In this document: one piece after another, positions 27,436 through 34,427 of the stretch
How positions within the stretch are numbered: position 1 is the stretch's first letter
Layout: each line of letters begins with the position of its first letter
Source of the DNA: an uncultured Candidatus Saccharibacteria bacterium
Lineage (GTDB): Bacteria > Patescibacteriota > Minisyncoccia > Phycocordibacterales > Phycocordibacteraceae
NCBI GenBank assembly: GCA_964391975.1
Contig: CAYMNZ010000001.1
Span: 132,465-196,464 of the forward strand
Direction of reading: 5' to 3'
DNA: 64,000 nucleotides
The notes under the pieces: model-generated
Told to the model about the DNA's origin: nothing
Databases searched by the model: none
Seen by the model: only the letters and a program-made list of their open reading frames with translations
Position numbers and translations under genes: made by a program

Positions 27436-27523
27436 GGAGGCGTCGCATAGTGGTCTAGTGCGCACGCTTGGAAAGCGTGTGAACCGCAAGGTTCCGAGAG
27501 TTCGAATCTCTCCGCCTCCGCCA
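27436..27523 (+). tRNA. tRNA-Ser (anticodon GGA), CCA encoded
   Basis: Cloverleaf: acceptor GGAGGCG/CGCCTCC, anticodon arm CACGC-TTGGAAA-GCGTG, long variable arm, T-arm GAGAG-TTCGAAT-CTCTC. Confidence 0.85.
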
Positions 27524-27945
27524 TGAACATCACGGGAATCATCATTCTCATTCTCGCGGCTGTATTCTTTTTCAGTATCTACGCAGGTTCGGCCCCACAG
27601 GTAGCACCGGAGCAGGTAGCGCCGGAGAATGTAGAACAACCGTCTCCTACGCAGGAGACGCCCGTCGTGACCCAGGACCGGAACGTCTTTACAGGAACGC
27701 TCGAATCAATTCATGAGGGATGTTATTACGATGCGTCTTGCTATGCGGTGGTCAGCGGAGTACAGGTGACCGTACTTACGGGCCGTCGACAGGAAGAGGT
27801 CGGATCGGTAGTTGGTGTCGCATCTTTTGGTGACTTGAAAAAGTACATCGGTAGCCAAGTGGAGGTGTATGCGAAACCCACAGAGAAGGGATACACCCTC
27901 TATGGGAGCAAGGACTATTACCTACGCCTCAAATTTGGTACTTAG
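27523..27945 (+). CDS. Hypothetical membrane-anchored small protein
   Basis: N-terminal TM helix, Pro/Glu-rich linker, Cys-containing C-terminal domain; ATG starts on the last base of the tRNA CCA. Confidence 0.4.
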   Translation: MNITGIIILILAAVFFFSIYAGSAPQVAPEQVAPENVEQPSPTQETPVVTQDRNVFTGTLESIHEGCYYDASCYAVVSGVQVTVLTGRRQEEVGSVVGVASFGDLKKYIGSQVEVYAKPTEKGYTLYGSKDYYLRLKFGT

Positions 27946-27982: not shown

Positions 27983-29788
27983 ATGAGCACGCCTACTCGT
28001 ACCTGGTGGTTTCTCCTCGGTGTTGCCGTAGTGCTGGGTGTTTTGGTGTTTTTCGGCGTTAGTTCTATCGTGCCGGGGGAACACTTGGGTGCACAGCTTC
28101 TAAAGACGCTCTTCGCTGGACCAGGCGGCTGGTTGTTCCTGGTTCCGGGCGTTCTGTTAGCGTTTGTGTTCACGCGCATTAGTTTGCACAGAGGAAAAAA
28201 ACTCTTCTCAGAAGAACTCAAACCTATTGAGGCGTTTATTTTTGCTTGTGCAGTGTATCTCTTTCTCGTATACGCGTCGTACCTCATTCTGACGGGGGTA
28301 CTCTACTTTGCAGCAAGTGGCGCTGGTAGTGCTGGTTTTGTATTCGGATTGTTATTTGCATACGCAGTGACTGGGGCATTACCAACGCTATATCTGGGGT
28401 TCCTCGTAACGATGGCACTGATGCTTGTGGCGTTCCGGTCGCCGAGGCAGGAGCCCGGCACCGTGCGATCATCGTTGCTGCGTCGGGGATTCATCATTGC
28501 AGTCTTCCTCGTTTCTCTGTATGCACTGAACGCATTTGTTCCGATTGGTATGGCGCTGAACCAACCCTGGCTCTGCAACCTGGCCTATAGCAGCCGCGCC
28601 AAGGCTGAGTGTTTCCTTGATGCCCAATCACAAAGTACTGCTTCCTCTAAGTACACCGTCATCCAAACTGACTACAAACAAATTAAAAATCTCAAGGATG
28701 TTGGTGGCAAGTTGGCGTACGCTTTTGAGCGACATGACGGCACATCAGGTGTTGTGTACGACGGCCAGCTAGTGAGTGGGGCGTATGAAAAAGTAGGTAT
28801 TCTTCCTATCGCAGAGGTTGGCGGCACACTGGCATACGAAGCGTATAAGGACGGAAAACAGATTATCGTCTGGGACGGTAAGGAGTATGGGAACGAGTAC
28901 GACATAGCACTCAGCCCGACCGATGTCGGCGGAAAGCTCGCATTTCTCGCGCGGAGGGGCACGCGAGAAACCGGACTGCACCAATTCGTCGTCTGGGACG
29001 GCAAAGAGTATGGAACTCAGTTTCAGCAAGCTAACGATATTCGCGATTTTTCTGGCCAACCGCTATTCAAAGCGAAAGGAGCAAACGGCGATTATGTTGT
29101 CGTTGGCGATACAAGCTACGGCCCCTACGGCTATGTCAGTTCTCTGGTAGTACAAGACGGACACTGGGTAGCCAAAGGCGGCAACAATCCCACGTACTAC
29201 ATCGTTGACGGTGTGCTATCTGCGGTTCCCACAAACGATATCGGTCAGGGAGTCTTTGTGAACGATGAGTTCGCGTACGGAGCCGCATCTTTAGAGCACC
29301 CATTAATCATGTACCAGGGCAAAGAGGTTGGCAGAGCCGTTAACTCTGAAGGAGGACCCTTTGAGATTAATGGAAAGGTAGGGTATGTGGCTCTGCTCCC
29401 AGACAATAGAGCGCAGCTTATGGTAGACGGACAGCCGGTTGGTCCGGCCATAGCAGGCAGGGTTCATAACATAGCGGTTTCGGAAGGAGGGAGAGTAGCA
29501 ATCCAAGTCGAAGACGGTTCAAAGTGTAGTGCTGTTGGCGGAGCGGTATACCTTGATGGTGAAAAAGTGTATGAAGGCTGCACCAGCAATCCGTACGGCT
29601 TTTATGGGGAAAAGCTCTTGTTCTGGATAAAAGAAAACGGCATGTCGTTGCTATGGTACGACGGAGAGAAAATCGGTCATGGATTCTACGGCTTCAACTA
29701 CATCGAGCTTATAAACGGCAAGATCGCCATCGCTGCATTCGCATCAACGAACAAGGGCATAGAATATTCGTTGCTGCTTGAGCAATAG
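27983..29788 (+). CDS. Membrane-anchored tandem-repeat protein (~38-aa W-D-G-K-E-Y-G / WG-like repeats)
   Basis: ~6 N-terminal TM helices then ~10 repeats of form VGGKLAY...DGK..VVWDGKEYG..YD. Confidence 0.5.
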   Translation: MSTPTRTWWFLLGVAVVLGVLVFFGVSSIVPGEHLGAQLLKTLFAGPGGWLFLVPGVLLAFVFTRISLHRGKKLFSEELKPIEAFIFACAVYLFLVYASYLILTGVLYFAASGAGSAGFVFGLLFAYAVTGALPTLYLGFLVTMALMLVAFRSPRQEPGTVRSSLLRRGFIIAVFLVSLYALNAFVPIGMALNQPWLCNLAYSSRAKAECFLDAQSQSTASSKYTVIQTDYKQIKNLKDVGGKLAYAFERHDGTSGVVYDGQLVSGAYEKVGILPIAEVGGTLAYEAYKDGKQIIVWDGKEYGNEYDIALSPTDVGGKLAFLARRGTRETGLHQFVVWDGKEYGTQFQQANDIRDFSGQPLFKAKGANGDYVVVGDTSYGPYGYVSSLVVQDGHWVAKGGNNPTYYIVDGVLSAVPTNDIGQGVFVNDEFAYGAASLEHPLIMYQGKEVGRAVNSEGGPFEINGKVGYVALLPDNRAQLMVDGQPVGPAIAGRVHNIAVSEGGRVAIQVEDGSKCSAVGGAVYLDGEKVYEGCTSNPYGFYGEKLLFWIKENGMSLLWYDGEKIGHGFYGFNYIELINGKIAIAAFASTNKGIEYSLLLEQ

Positions 29789-29789
29789 T

Positions 29790-30125
29790 ATGGAATTCAT
29801 CGGTGTCGTCGCAGGAGGAAGCGCCAAAGCTAATGCGCTTGGCTACCCCACAGCCAACATCCCACTTACCGATACAAGTGTATCGGGCATCTTTGCAGCG
29901 AGCGTTCGTCTCGATGATACGGACTACCCTTCAGTCGCATTCGCGGACCCAGCACGCTCTGTGCTCGAAGCACACCTTTTTGATTTCTCTGGAAATCTCT
30001 ACGGAAAGGAAATCACTATCTCGCTCGTGAAGAAAATTCGCGAGACCAAGGAATTCACTGATGACGAGTCTCTCAAGGCAGCTATGAAGGAAGATGCCGA
30101 GGAAGCGAAGAAGATTCTTTTGTAA
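29790..30125 (+). CDS. Stand-alone riboflavin kinase domain protein
   Basis: GYPTANI flavokinase motif; ~110 aa; no FAD-synthetase domain. Confidence 0.65.
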   Translation: MEFIGVVAGGSAKANALGYPTANIPLTDTSVSGIFAASVRLDDTDYPSVAFADPARSVLEAHLFDFSGNLYGKEITISLVKKIRETKEFTDDESLKAAMKEDAEEAKKILL

Positions 30126-30128
30126 TCC

Positions 30129-30752
30129 ATGTTTACCGGCATCATCGAGCAAACAGGAACGGTGAAGAATGTTGCAATGCGTGGGCGTGCAAAAGTAGTA
30201 ACGCTCTCAAAGCCTGCGAGCTGGAAACTGAAGAAAGGGCAGAGTGTGAACGTTAGCGGCATCTGTTCCACTGTCGTTTCTTCCGGTGCCACGAGCCTCA
30301 CTGTTGAGTACATGCCGGAGACGCTGCGTGTCACGACGGCTGCATCTCTTATAAAAGGAACGAAGGTGAATCTTGAACGTTCGCTCAAATACGGAGACCG
30401 TATGGATGGACATCTGGTATCGGGACACATAGAAGGAGTGGGGAAAGTGGGAAAGGTAGAGAAAGAAGGCCGTTCACTTCTTCTCTCGATTAAGGTCCCG
30501 GCTCTTCTTGGTCGCTACGCACTAGAGCGCGGCTCAATTACTATCGACGGTGTTTCGCTCACTGTCGCCCGCAGGCATGGGCCCTGGGTCACGGTCGCGC
30601 TGGTGCCGCACACGCTTTCACACACCACGCTTGGGCAGCTTTCTGTTGGAGACAGCATCAACCTAGAGACCGATATCCGTCATCGTGCGCTCATAAAGCC
30701 CCGTGCTAGAGTGAAATCCTATGCAACGAAGCCACTACGAAAAGGCCGCTAA
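30129..30752 (+). CDS. ribE: Riboflavin synthase alpha subunit
   Basis: MFTGIIE N-terminus; two lumazine-binding repeats; LVSGHIEGVG. Confidence 0.85.
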   Translation: MFTGIIEQTGTVKNVAMRGRAKVVTLSKPASWKLKKGQSVNVSGICSTVVSSGATSLTVEYMPETLRVTTAASLIKGTKVNLERSLKYGDRMDGHLVSGHIEGVGKVGKVEKEGRSLLLSIKVPALLGRYALERGSITIDGVSLTVARRHGPWVTVALVPHTLSHTTLGQLSVGDSINLETDIRHRALIKPRARVKSYATKPLRKGR

Positions 30753-31185
30753 GACCCAGGACGCCTCGAGGCTCACGGTGGGAATCGTCGTCTCAAGCTT
30801 TAATACCGACATCACGGAGAAGATGCTCACGGGAGCAGTGACGACGCTCCGGCAGTGGGGCGTGAAGGAGAAGCAGATTCGCATCGTGCGCGTGCCAGGG
30901 AGCTTCGAGATTACCTACGGTTGTATGAAGCTTCTCAAAAACAAGAAGATGGATGCCATCGTCGCACTCGGCTGCATTATTAAAGGAGAGACTGACCACG
31001 ATAAGTACCTTGCGCATGCGGTTGCAGCAGGCATCACCAACCTCACGATTGCGTCTGGCGTTCCTATTTCCTTCGGCGTCATTACGCCCAACTCACTCGC
31101 ACAGGCGCGCGTGCGGTCAAAAGGGAAGCACAACAAGGGCGTTGAGGCAGCCATTGCTGCCATGAGCTCGGCGCTTCTTCCCTAA
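30721..31185 (+). CDS. ribH: 6,7-dimethyl-8-ribityllumazine synthase
   Basis: GIVVSSFN, RVPGSFEI, LGCIIKGETDH signature. Confidence 0.85.
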   Translation: MQRSHYEKAAKTQDASRLTVGIVVSSFNTDITEKMLTGAVTTLRQWGVKEKQIRIVRVPGSFEITYGCMKLLKNKKMDAIVALGCIIKGETDHDKYLAHAVAAGITNLTIASGVPISFGVITPNSLAQARVRSKGKHNKGVEAAIAAMSSALLP

Positions 31186-31637
31186 TGCCACTTCCTACAC
31201 GACTGGTAGCTGCCATTGGACTTGCGGTGGTCTCCATCGTTGGGCTCGTGTGGTACATGCATTCGTTGCCGCAGGAATCTGAAGAAGAATTGAGTGTTGT
31301 AGCTCAGTCGGTTACCTTTGAGCTTGCTGATACAGACGAGGAGCGCGGACGCGGCCTTTCAGGACGCGCGGAAATCCCTCATAACTACGCAATGCTCTTT
31401 GTCTTTGATACTCCTGGCCGATACGGCTTCTGGATGAAGGATATGCGCACCTCTATCGATATTATCTGGCTCGATGAGAATCATGTGGTAACAAAGGTAG
31501 ACGAAGCGGTTCTTCCAAGCACGTTCCCAACCCTCTTCTATCCACCGACCCCAACGCGCTACGTGCTTGAGACTGCTGCAGGGCAGGCGAAGGTCCTCGG
31601 ATGGGTGCCAGGCACTTCAGTCGCACTGCCACTGTAG
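31185..31637 (+). CDS. DUF192 domain protein
   Basis: N-terminal TM; ...NYAMLFVF...MKDMRTSIDIIWLD... typical of COG1430/DUF192. Confidence 0.65.
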   Translation: MPLPTRLVAAIGLAVVSIVGLVWYMHSLPQESEEELSVVAQSVTFELADTDEERGRGLSGRAEIPHNYAMLFVFDTPGRYGFWMKDMRTSIDIIWLDENHVVTKVDEAVLPSTFPTLFYPPTPTRYVLETAAGQAKVLGWVPGTSVALPL

Positions 31638-31649
31638 CCGTGCTATAGT

Positions 31650-31966
31650 CCTCCCGGACCGATACAGGCAATCGCTCTGAGTTTCTCAGAGAGGAAAGTC
31701 CGAACACAGGCAGCGAAAGCTGCAGAAAGGTAGCGGGTAACGCCCGTCCGCAGCAATGCGCGAGGTGCGAACAGTGACGTCAACGACGAAAGTCCGCGAC
31801 ATCCTTCGGGATGAACTTCATCGTAAGGTGAAGATGAAACGGCAAAATCCTTACCCCTGTGCAAGGCCGTGCCCCGCAAGAGGAGTGCCGCTTGAGGGCG
31901 TCGGTAACGACGCTCCCAGATAAATGATTGTCCGCGACAGAATTCGGCTTACCGTATCGATCCAAC
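31650..31966 (+). ncRNA. rnpB: RNase P RNA (bacterial type)
   Basis: P4 halves GAGGAAAGTCCGAAC and ACAGAATTCGGCTTA; GGGTAACGCCC loop; P1 pairing GGACCGATAC/GTATCGATCC; lies in a 440-nt gap and is covered only by short spurious ORFs. Confidence 0.7.
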
Positions 31967-31971
31967 AACAT

Positions 31972-32081: not shown

Positions 32082-34427
32082 ATGCACGATTCAACAACCG
32101 GCATTCGCCGTCTTTCGCTCGACAGTGCTGCGGCATGGGTGCTGACCGCAACTGCAGTCATTGCCATTCTTATTTTCCTTCCGTTCAGTTGGGCGCCATT
32201 CGTCCACACCAAAGTGCTGGTACTCACGCTCGGCGTGTTGCTCACGCTCGTGCTCTTTGTGCTCAGCGCACTCAAGCGCGGAAGTATCACGCTCCCGCAT
32301 CTTCCGCTTGTCGGTTCTCTCTGGTTGGTGCCACTGGCGTACCTTCTCTCCACACTCTTCTCCGGCACTAACCCTGCAGCTGCGTTCTTCGGCACCGGCT
32401 TCTCCCCTGACAGTTTCGGGCTCTTCCTCCTTCTCGCCCTTCTTGCAACACTGGCTTCCTTCGTTCTCTCGACACTTCAGTTCCAGAAGCGCTTTGTGAA
32501 GGGACTGATAGGTGCGTTCCTCCTCCTGCTTGTTTCGGAGATTGTGTTCCTTCTGGGTGGAAAATTCTTCCCAGCGCTGGTTTCTCCGACCGGAAACCTC
32601 ATTGGTTCTTTCGTTGACCTCGGCTTCTTCGTAGGTCTTGGTGTCTCGTTGGCGCTTCTCTGGGCTCGGTTCATGGTCGTGAAGCGCAAGGTAGTCTTAT
32701 ATGTCGCGGTCGTTCTTGGGCTTATCGTTCTTGCTCTCGCTAACTCCATCATTGCCTGGGCCCTCGTATCTCTCGTTGCGTTTGGTCTCTTTGTAGAGGC
32801 GGTGATGTACATGCAGTCGCGCACCGAGAGTCCGGTACGCCGCTCGCTCGCCCTGCCACTACTCACGCTTGCTGCAGGCCTCCTCTTCATGCTCGGAAGC
32901 TCAACAGTAGGAAGCGCTCTCTCGACGCTTGCTGGCACTACCTATATAGATGCTCGTCCTTCATTGCAGTCGACCTTCCAGGTAGGTACGCACACGTACG
33001 CTTCCTCACCACTCTTTGGCACCGGACCAGGTACCTTCGGAAGGGAGTGGCTCGAGCACCGTGACCGCTCAATTAACGACAGCATCTTCTGGAGCGTCGA
33101 CTTCACCTCGGGCATCGGGCACGTGCCAACGTCCTTTGTGACCACTGGCGTCATCGGCGTTCTTGCCTGGATTGCCTTCTTCGCACTCTTCCTGTTCTTC
33201 GGTCTTCGCTCGCTTCTCATGCGCTTACCGACTGAACCATGGCCGCGCTTCATCTCGATTGCTTCCTTCACGGGCGCACTCTATGTGCTTATACTCGCGA
33301 TAGCTGCGCTGCCGGGCCCCGTTACCCTCGGTATAGGATTCTTGCTGCTCGGCCTCTTCATTGCTTCGAGACCTGAAGCAGAGGGACGAATGCTTACGTT
33401 CTCGCAGAATCCGCGCATAGGGTTCGCGCTGGTATTCACGCTTACGTTACTTCTTATTGCATCGCTTGCATACGGTTACGTGGTGGTCAGCCGCTATGTT
33501 GCTGACGTCTCGTTCAATCAAGCAGGAACTGCACTGTCTGCAGGAAACTTCGATGCTGCACAGAGCGCCGTCACTCGCTCGATTGCATTGGCTCCTGAAA
33601 GCCGTACGTACCGTCTTGCAGCGCTTATTGGGTATGCACGCATGAGCCAGGTAGTGAATAACTCTTCGCTCACCCAGACTGAAGCACGTGACCAGTTCCA
33701 AACTGCCGTTGGTAGTGCCATCACGTCTGCACTTCAAGCAACCACACTTGACCAGAACGATTACCAAAACTGGGCAATGCTTGGAAACATCTACGGCAGC
33801 TTGGTGCCGCTTAAGATTGAAGGTGCGTATGAGAACGCGAAGGGCGCGTACGAGAAGGCAGTAGCGCTTGCTCCTACCAACCCGAGCCTACCGTACGTTC
33901 TGGGGCAACTTGAGATTGCGCGCGGTAACACAGAAGCGGCGGAAGCGTATCTTATTGAAGCTATTAACTTGAAGCGCGATTACACGCAGGCAATCCTTCT
34001 CTTCGCGCAAACAGAAGTCTCAAGCGGCAAGACCGCGCAGGCGCTCCAGGCAGCTGAAGCAGCTGCGTACTTCGCTCCAAACGACCCAGGCGTGCTCTTG
34101 CAGGTGGGTCTACTTCGTTCGGCGGCTGGCGAGACGGCCGGCGCTATACAGGCCCTTGCGCGTGCGTCTGAGATTAACCCTCAGTTCGCCAACGCTCGTT
34201 TCTTCCTCGGCGTTATGTATGCCGTCTCAGGAGAGTATGAGAAGGCGGTTGCAGAGATTAGCGCTGTTGCAAGCTTCTCTCCGGAGAACGCTACGGCAGT
34301 GGCGGCAGACCTCGAGACCTTGAAGCAAGGGAAGAATCCGTTCCCAGCATCCCGGCTCGCAGCCTTCGGCATTCCGTACGCTCCACTAGCTGAGCCACGT
34401 CCCGCAGGTGTCGTGCCGGCGCAGTAG
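32082..34427 (+). CDS. O-antigen ligase (Wzy_C)-like polytopic membrane protein with C-terminal TPR repeats
   Basis: ~12 TM helices, large periplasmic loop, ~250-aa TPR region (YEKAVALAP, AIQALARASEINP). Confidence 0.7.
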   Translation: MHDSTTGIRRLSLDSAAAWVLTATAVIAILIFLPFSWAPFVHTKVLVLTLGVLLTLVLFVLSALKRGSITLPHLPLVGSLWLVPLAYLLSTLFSGTNPAAAFFGTGFSPDSFGLFLLLALLATLASFVLSTLQFQKRFVKGLIGAFLLLLVSEIVFLLGGKFFPALVSPTGNLIGSFVDLGFFVGLGVSLALLWARFMVVKRKVVLYVAVVLGLIVLALANSIIAWALVSLVAFGLFVEAVMYMQSRTESPVRRSLALPLLTLAAGLLFMLGSSTVGSALSTLAGTTYIDARPSLQSTFQVGTHTYASSPLFGTGPGTFGREWLEHRDRSINDSIFWSVDFTSGIGHVPTSFVTTGVIGVLAWIAFFALFLFFGLRSLLMRLPTEPWPRFISIASFTGALYVLILAIAALPGPVTLGIGFLLLGLFIASRPEAEGRMLTFSQNPRIGFALVFTLTLLLIASLAYGYVVVSRYVADVSFNQAGTALSAGNFDAAQSAVTRSIALAPESRTYRLAALIGYARMSQVVNNSSLTQTEARDQFQTAVGSAITSALQATTLDQNDYQNWAMLGNIYGSLVPLKIEGAYENAKGAYEKAVALAPTNPSLPYVLGQLEIARGNTEAAEAYLIEAINLKRDYTQAILLFAQTEVSSGKTAQALQAAEAAAYFAPNDPGVLLQVGLLRSAAGETAGAIQALARASEINPQFANARFFLGVMYAVSGEYEKAVAEISAVASFSPENATAVAADLETLKQGKNPFPASRLAAFGIPYAPLAEPRPAGVVPAQ

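Follow-up and report, generated by a model that had tools for sequence, protein, structure and literature searches.

A predicted membrane-anchored beta-propeller with ten compact blades in a Candidatus Saccharibacteria bacterium

Introduction

Ten-bladed beta-propellers are rare, and the well-studied examples are eukaryotic Vps10p receptors. Here we describe a bacterial candidate, a 601-amino-acid (aa) protein encoded in a 64,000-nucleotide stretch of DNA (the window) from an uncultured Candidatus Saccharibacteria bacterium (GenBank assembly GCA_964391975.1, contig CAYMNZ010000001.1, positions 132,465 to 196,464, forward strand). With a probability of roughly 0.6, we consider this "hypothetical protein" to be a non-enzymatic, membrane-anchored protein that presents a compact ten-bladed propeller on the outside of the cytoplasmic membrane.

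The closest described fold is the Vps10p domain of sortilin and SorLA (PDB 3f6k, 5nmt and 3wsz), which gave the best global structural match to the predicted domain (Foldseek E ~1e-6; query-normalized TM-score, TMq, 0.56-0.61). Sortilin and the window protein, as predicted, would have in common a closed ring of ten four-strand blades, a location outside the membrane and the lack of enzymatic function. They differ in most other respects. Sequence identity is just 11-13%, the target-normalized TM-score (TMt) is 0.37-0.42, and the window protein builds its blades from ~37 aa each, whereas the sortilin chains comprise about 650 residues. The 10CC modules of sortilin are absent, and the anchor is an N-terminal module of five helices rather than one C-terminal helix. 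Because sortilin is eukaryotic and the window protein bacterial, convergence in blade number is likelier than homology. No Vps10p or Asp-box family was matched in Pfam at E<=10, a family-level result, as the Asp-box motif itself was not searched in the blades.

Three further systems offer partial likenesses. Propellers of the PD40/TolB type (TolB, tricorn beta6 and beta7, the N-terminal propellers of S9 peptidases; PF07676) are located in the envelope, as the window protein probably is, but they have six to eight blades instead of ten, and the window protein has neither a peptidase domain nor the TolB N-terminal domain. PF07676 itself did not match the 601-aa protein at E<=10. Membrane-bound pyrroloquinoline quinone (PQQ) glucose dehydrogenase, in which an N-terminal five-helix anchor precedes a periplasmic propeller of eight blades, is alike in layout only, with about five N-terminal transmembrane (TM) helices followed by an extracytoplasmic propeller; the window protein has ten blades, no PQQ repeat match and no cofactor-binding motifs. 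Among named families, only TmcD (NF045725; DVU_0266) shows recurrent sequence similarity to the repeat. TmcD is subunit D of the Desulfovibrio TmcABCD complex and is predicted to be cytoplasmic and part of a redox complex. We found no paper that describes TmcD beyond listing it as a subunit of that complex. Its model spans 412 aa, which would fit about ten such units, and the repeat type is the only element common to TmcD and the repeat family. A literature search for propeller surface proteins of the Candidate Phyla Radiation (CPR) likewise returned nothing pertinent.

Results and Discussion

An earlier, sequence-only reading of this DNA had proposed about ten tandem repeats of ~38 aa following the membrane helices, and internal repetition was confirmed. 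Gapped Smith-Waterman self-alignment of residues 226-601 scored 146, compared with 40.5±7.1 (maximum 59) in 30 shuffles, and the top alignment corresponded to a register shift of one unit (237-495 against 276-523). A repeat hidden Markov model (HMM) built from the unrelated proteins P0011 and P0012 only (P numbers are our designations for family proteins) scored the ectodomain at 89.4 bits, the maximum in 500 shuffles being 8.8. Upon iteration, the repeat HMM detected 9-10 units of 35-41 aa (~37 aa) with the unit consensus EIGGKLAYAAEKGGKSFVVYDGKEVGKEYDYVKDPT, in good agreement with the proposed number and length. Three units are strong (239-272, 278-313 and 314-353) and two are moderate (426-452 and 461-488); the remaining units are degenerate and recognizable mainly through their predicted strands. 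Off-diagonal matches were absent when the repeat domain was compared with itself by BLASTP, such that gapped Smith-Waterman alignment and HMMs were needed, and no tandem repeat was found in the propeller gene at the DNA level. The repeats are real, but old and diverged. The same reading had placed recurrent Gly and aromatic positions every ~36–40 residues; fixed-lag autocorrelation of these positions did not exceed that of shuffled sequences because the unit length varies.

AlphaFold2 modeling of the full-length protein, using a 10-sequence family alignment, yielded a helical membrane region and an all-beta C-terminal domain (overall predicted local distance difference test score, pLDDT, 79.9; about 85-94 in the beta domain). 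When residues 222-601 were modeled on their own, the pLDDT rose to 89.3, with values of mostly 88-97 across residues 241-577 and a predicted TM-score (pTM) of 0.84. Each repeat unit corresponds to four predicted strands in the order GG, strand A, turn, strand B, DG, strand C, loop, strand D, and the roughly 40 predicted strands fall into ten groups of four in register with the repeats. Nine of these groups are complete units, with blades at 241-279, 280-315, 316-356, 357-391, 392-426, 427-462, 463-502, 503-541 and 542-577. The tenth would arise by ring closure, in which the strands of residues 222-240 and 578-601 combine as blade 10. This closure is suggested by the strand count and by the match to ten-bladed sortilin, and the model contains ten blades provided that both chain ends merge into one.

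All top PDB fold matches to the full-length and ectodomain models were propellers, and with the ectodomain the ten-bladed Vps10p domains ranked first. Propellers with fewer blades scored lower, with TMq values of 0.26-0.34 for the seven-bladed acylaminoacyl peptidase and 0.32-0.41 for the eight-bladed Fbw7 and BamB. By prediction, the ectodomain is thus a beta-propeller in general and a ten-bladed one in particular. Together with the confident model, these matches support the suggestion in the sequence-only reading that the repeats resemble propeller blades; a beta-solenoid, also considered, was rejected. A sequence search of the PDB with the 601-aa protein gave chance-level matches only (Fab chains and catalase, E>=0.03). 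We read the modeled domain as PD40/TolB-like blades, with the geometry seen in TolB, tricorn and S9 peptidases, that would be assembled in a ring of ten.

Hydropathy and the AlphaFold2 model agree on five TM helices ahead of the propeller (about 8-30, 49-66, 82-113, 115-150 and 168-192), one fewer than the approximately six counted previously. The loops at 65-81 (RISLHRGKKLFSEELKP, net +3) and 151-167 (RSPRQEPGTVRSSLLRR, net +4) are strongly basic and, by the positive-inside rule, would be cytoplasmic, which gives an N-in/C-out topology and probably places the propeller outside the cytoplasmic membrane. In the linker between helix five and the propeller, Cys198, Lys207 and Cys210 are conserved in at least 90% of one alignment (A1) and invariant in a second (A2); Cys198 and Cys210 may form a disulfide. 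A second pair in blade 8, Cys515 and Cys533, is either present or absent as a pair among orthologs. The positive-inside charges, the co-varying Cys pairs and the occurrence of signal peptides or lipoboxes in relatives are consistent, if indirect, indications that the repeats are extracytoplasmic, as first supposed. In P0007, nothing intervenes between TM1 and the propeller; because an even number of helices (four) is missing there, the propeller stays on the same side. An HMM of the membrane module matched about 18 of 159 family proteins, a set made up of the earlier homologs and 150 representatives of the repeat search; the module always lay N-terminal of the propeller. Eight residues of the module are invariant (P55, P81, F85, Y92, L123, Y137, R167 and Y180). 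No acidic or histidine residue is found among the conserved positions of the five helices, and for this reason we treat the module mainly as an anchor.

Most orthologs carry an additional N-terminal helical domain of ~45 aa (LDYVRQQL.aG.S.EQI...L...GW...DI.eAF) and a Pro/Ser/Thr-rich linker ahead of TM1, an extension that agrees with the proposed topology. The domain occurs in P0002, P0003, P0005, P0006 and P0008, as well as in the repeat-family members P0075, P0114 and P0149; it is absent from the window protein and has no match in Pfam.

The 601-aa protein has no significant family in Pfam, NCBIfam, PHROGs or PADLOC, and a Pfam scan at E<=10 returned only a sub-threshold match to Tmemb_14. 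No catalytic family or domain was found in these four resources, in keeping with the initial observation that no catalytic motif is visible. Membership in the WG_beta_rep, PQQ or YVTN repeat families, which the sequence-only reading had raised, was not borne out, as there was no Pfam match even at E<=10; P0011 and P0012, two relatives with regular repeats, had none at E<=1 either. The repeat is nevertheless widespread. Exhaustive phmmer searching with the ectodomain recovered 469 representative clusters at E<=1e-3, 191 of them at E<=1e-10. A three-unit profile search returned only unnamed short fragments. A typical member is 350-500 aa long and consists of a signal peptide, a lipobox or one TM helix, and then 8-12 units; in four relatives (P0029, P0031, P0062 and P0048), PG_binding_1 precedes the repeats. 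Among species-representative genomes, Patescibacteria metagenome-assembled genomes (MAGs) alone contain the full-length form (Adlerbacteria, Paceibacterota and some labeled Saccharibacteria), and propeller-only relatives occur in MAGs of Altiarchaeia and Euryarchaeota. The most distant relatives, P0013-P0018, which gave the weakest matches in a word-indexed search, carry PD40, with 'FSPDGRRLVF' standing where the unit has 'EIGGKLAYAA'; their precomputed annotation lists PF26549 (accession only) beside PD40. The nearest recognizable blade type is PD40/TolB-like, and the relationship is visible only in these most distant sequences.

Several family members are of interest in their own right. P0066 is a giant of 4025 aa with 39 repeat units, and P0106 (1374 aa) combines repeats with weak Carmo_coat_C, BACON_2 and transglutaminase-like matches. 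A Euryarchaeota MAG (CAIYYO010000255.1; L010, 1337-5101) encodes the repeat protein in at least three tandem paralogs on one contig, and a Paceibacterota locus (L007) has two adjacent repeat-protein matches. On Adlerbacteria contig MEWY01000002.1 (L001, 1-13713), the ribosomal protein operon ends after L5; the propeller homolog P0004 comes next, and then Phage_rep_O, a serine recombinase and an OLD-family nuclease, an arrangement that looks like a mobile-element insertion into or beside the ribosomal operon.

With regard to function, a non-enzymatic binding platform of the cell envelope is the most likely role for the modeled protein. The five-helix module would anchor the protein in the membrane with its N-terminus inside, and the propeller may bind an envelope or extracellular partner such as a cell-wall polymer, a peptide or a protein. 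Conservation among orthologs differs by sector, from 0.74-0.85 in blades 9, 10, 1 and 2 to 0.53-0.56 in blades 4-5. This pattern suggests that blades 9-10-1-2, near the ring closure and the membrane exit, could form a constant interaction surface, with a variable sector in the opposing blades. Four points weigh against this picture. The ring closure and the blade number rest on AlphaFold2 models derived from just 9-10 sequences. TmcD, the only named family with similarity, is predicted to be a cytoplasmic subunit of a redox complex, which fits poorly with an envelope role. The five-helix module is itself conserved (majority fraction 0.52-0.63) and could do more than anchor. Finally, no ligand, partner or conserved neighboring gene was found, so the assignment as a binding platform is an argument by fold and exclusion.

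Two more specific versions of the envelope reading deserve consideration, and the present evidence does not separate them. In one, which is possible but doubtful, the protein is a TolB-like scaffold whose propeller would attach to peptidoglycan of the same cell, or to a wall-associated protein, and link wall to membrane, for example in division or wall turnover. The PD40 domains of the most distant relatives, which also match the TolB model, are consistent with this proposal, as are the anchoring of the family through lipoprotein signals or TM helices and the PG_binding_1 fusions, although a fusion is co-location and not proof that the propeller binds peptidoglycan. Against it, TIGR02800 did not match the 601-aa protein, the neighborhood is free of tol-pal genes, the protein lacks the TolB N-terminal domain and the model has ten blades compared with six in TolB. 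In the other version, an adhesin or receptor as already raised in the sequence-only reading, which we regard as rather unlikely, the protein would serve an episymbiotic CPR cell in binding its host, and the variable blades would track host diversity as the propeller contacts a surface structure of the host bacterium. A putatively extracytoplasmic, non-catalytic domain, the restriction of the full-length form to Patescibacteria MAGs, the variability of blades 4-5 and the tandem paralogs in an archaeal MAG, as are common for surface proteins, would all suit an adhesin. However, a linker of 29 residues ties the propeller directly to the cytoplasmic membrane, and the propeller may not extend past the wall or S-layer of its own cell. 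Among the relatives, the most regular ones are ordinary lipoproteins of archaea and other lineages, and the propeller gene has no linked genes for pili, secretion or other aspects of host interaction. No observation singles out a host ligand, and the PG_binding_1 fusions point at least as much to the organism's own wall.

Outside the envelope reading, the similarity to TmcD raises the idea of a subunit in a membrane redox or electron-transfer complex, with the five-helix module standing in for the membrane partner. Partial matches to NF045725 do recur across the repeat family, with E values of 5e-22 for P0013, 6e-9 for P0011 and 0.018 for the 601-aa protein (13.9 bits over 72 residues), but they score 14-78 bits against a cutoff of 440 bits. 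The window protein has no haem-binding or Fe-S motifs, its membrane module lacks conserved His or Cys, and the neighborhood contains no cytochrome or Fe-S genes. Its propeller is predicted to lie outside the cell, in contrast to the predicted cytoplasmic location of TmcD. We therefore hold this explanation to be very improbable. Two other candidates were rejected: a propeller that gates a peptidase, as there is no catalytic domain, and a defense or phage protein.

What is known here is the fold class, with blades that are remote relatives of PD40. The unusual features are the blade number, the compactness (~37 aa per blade), the five-helix anchor specific to CPR and the lack of a curated model for a family of at least 469 clusters. 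If correct, the preferred reading of an envelope-facing, ten-bladed propeller would provide a far more compact prokaryotic counterpart to the known ten-bladed proteins, formed by a repeat for which no curated model exists. For CPR biology, it would define a predicted fold for a conserved, abundant-looking surface or envelope protein. The result is a structural annotation of a "hypothetical protein" and no new mechanism. A bolder proposal, which we offer as a long shot, is that the ~37-aa 'GGKLAY...VVYDGKEYG..YD' unit marks an undescribed compact ten-bladed family in ultra-small prokaryotes, namely CPR bacteria, Altiarchaeota and other archaea. The five-helix CPR form would then be a dedicated receptor; its wide central tunnel would take up a ligand from the host or the environment, much as sortilin takes up peptides, and the ligand or a signal would be relayed to the membrane module.

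Table 1. Parts of the propeller gene and neighboring features, in window coordinates
Feature	Position	Strand	Basis or remark
Propeller gene, 601-aa protein (stop codon included)	27983..29788	+	ORF (open reading frame) list
N-terminal polytopic membrane module, residues 1-192	27983..28558	+	Hydropathy, AlphaFold2 helices
Juxtamembrane linker, residues 193-221	28559..28645	+	Nearly invariant Cys198...Cys210 (WLCNLxYSSRAKAxC)
Two N-terminal beta strands, residues 222-240	28646..28702	+	DSSP strands 224-228 and 233-240; putative part of blade 10
Nine complete four-strand units, residues 241-577	28703..29713	+	Repeat HMM, four strands per unit, pLDDT
C-terminal half unit (two strands), residues 578-601	29714..29785	+	Conserved SLLLEQ at end; putatively paired with 222-240 as blade 10
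tRNA-Ser(GGA)	27436..27523	+	Between htpX and the 140-aa ORF
140-aa ORF	27523..27945	+	One N-terminal TM helix
Riboflavin genes	29778..31637	+	3' of the propeller gene
Bacterial RNase P RNA, class A	31656..31967	+	120 bits (gathering score 100)
781-aa protein	32082..34427	+	Membrane region and TPR repeats

Genomic Context

The propeller gene has a plausible Shine-Dalgarno sequence, AGGA, 8 nt 5' of its ATG. An identical 601-aa protein is encoded on 10 public contigs, the longest of 742 kb, and the closest named homolog is the hypothetical protein P0004 of Candidatus Adlerbacteria, which places the organism among the Patescibacteria (CPR), as the sequence-only reading had surmised. The gene lies within a co-directional run of groES, groEL, lemA, htpX, tRNA-Ser, the 140-aa TM-anchored ORF, the propeller gene, flavokinase, ribE, ribH, DUF192 and RNase P RNA. 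None of 10 window neighbors recurred beside propeller-gene homologs in 11 retrieved loci (a set that includes duplicate regions), and the gene context therefore gives no functional clue.

Several features of the neighborhood were recorded in passing. The 140-aa ORF begins right at the 3' end of tRNA-Ser(GGA); it has no match in Pfam or PHROGs and does not recur beside homologs of the propeller gene. The riboflavin genes encode a 115-aa flavokinase-only protein, riboflavin synthase (two Lum_binding domains) and lumazine synthase, followed by DUF192. The likely ATG of the flavokinase is at 29790, one base past the stop codon of the propeller gene. Cofactor biosynthesis genes are uncommon in CPR genomes. 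The RNase P RNA gene lies directly 3' of the DUF192 gene. The 781-aa protein beyond it combines a long polytopic membrane region with C-terminal TPR repeats, and Pfam matches only the TPR part.
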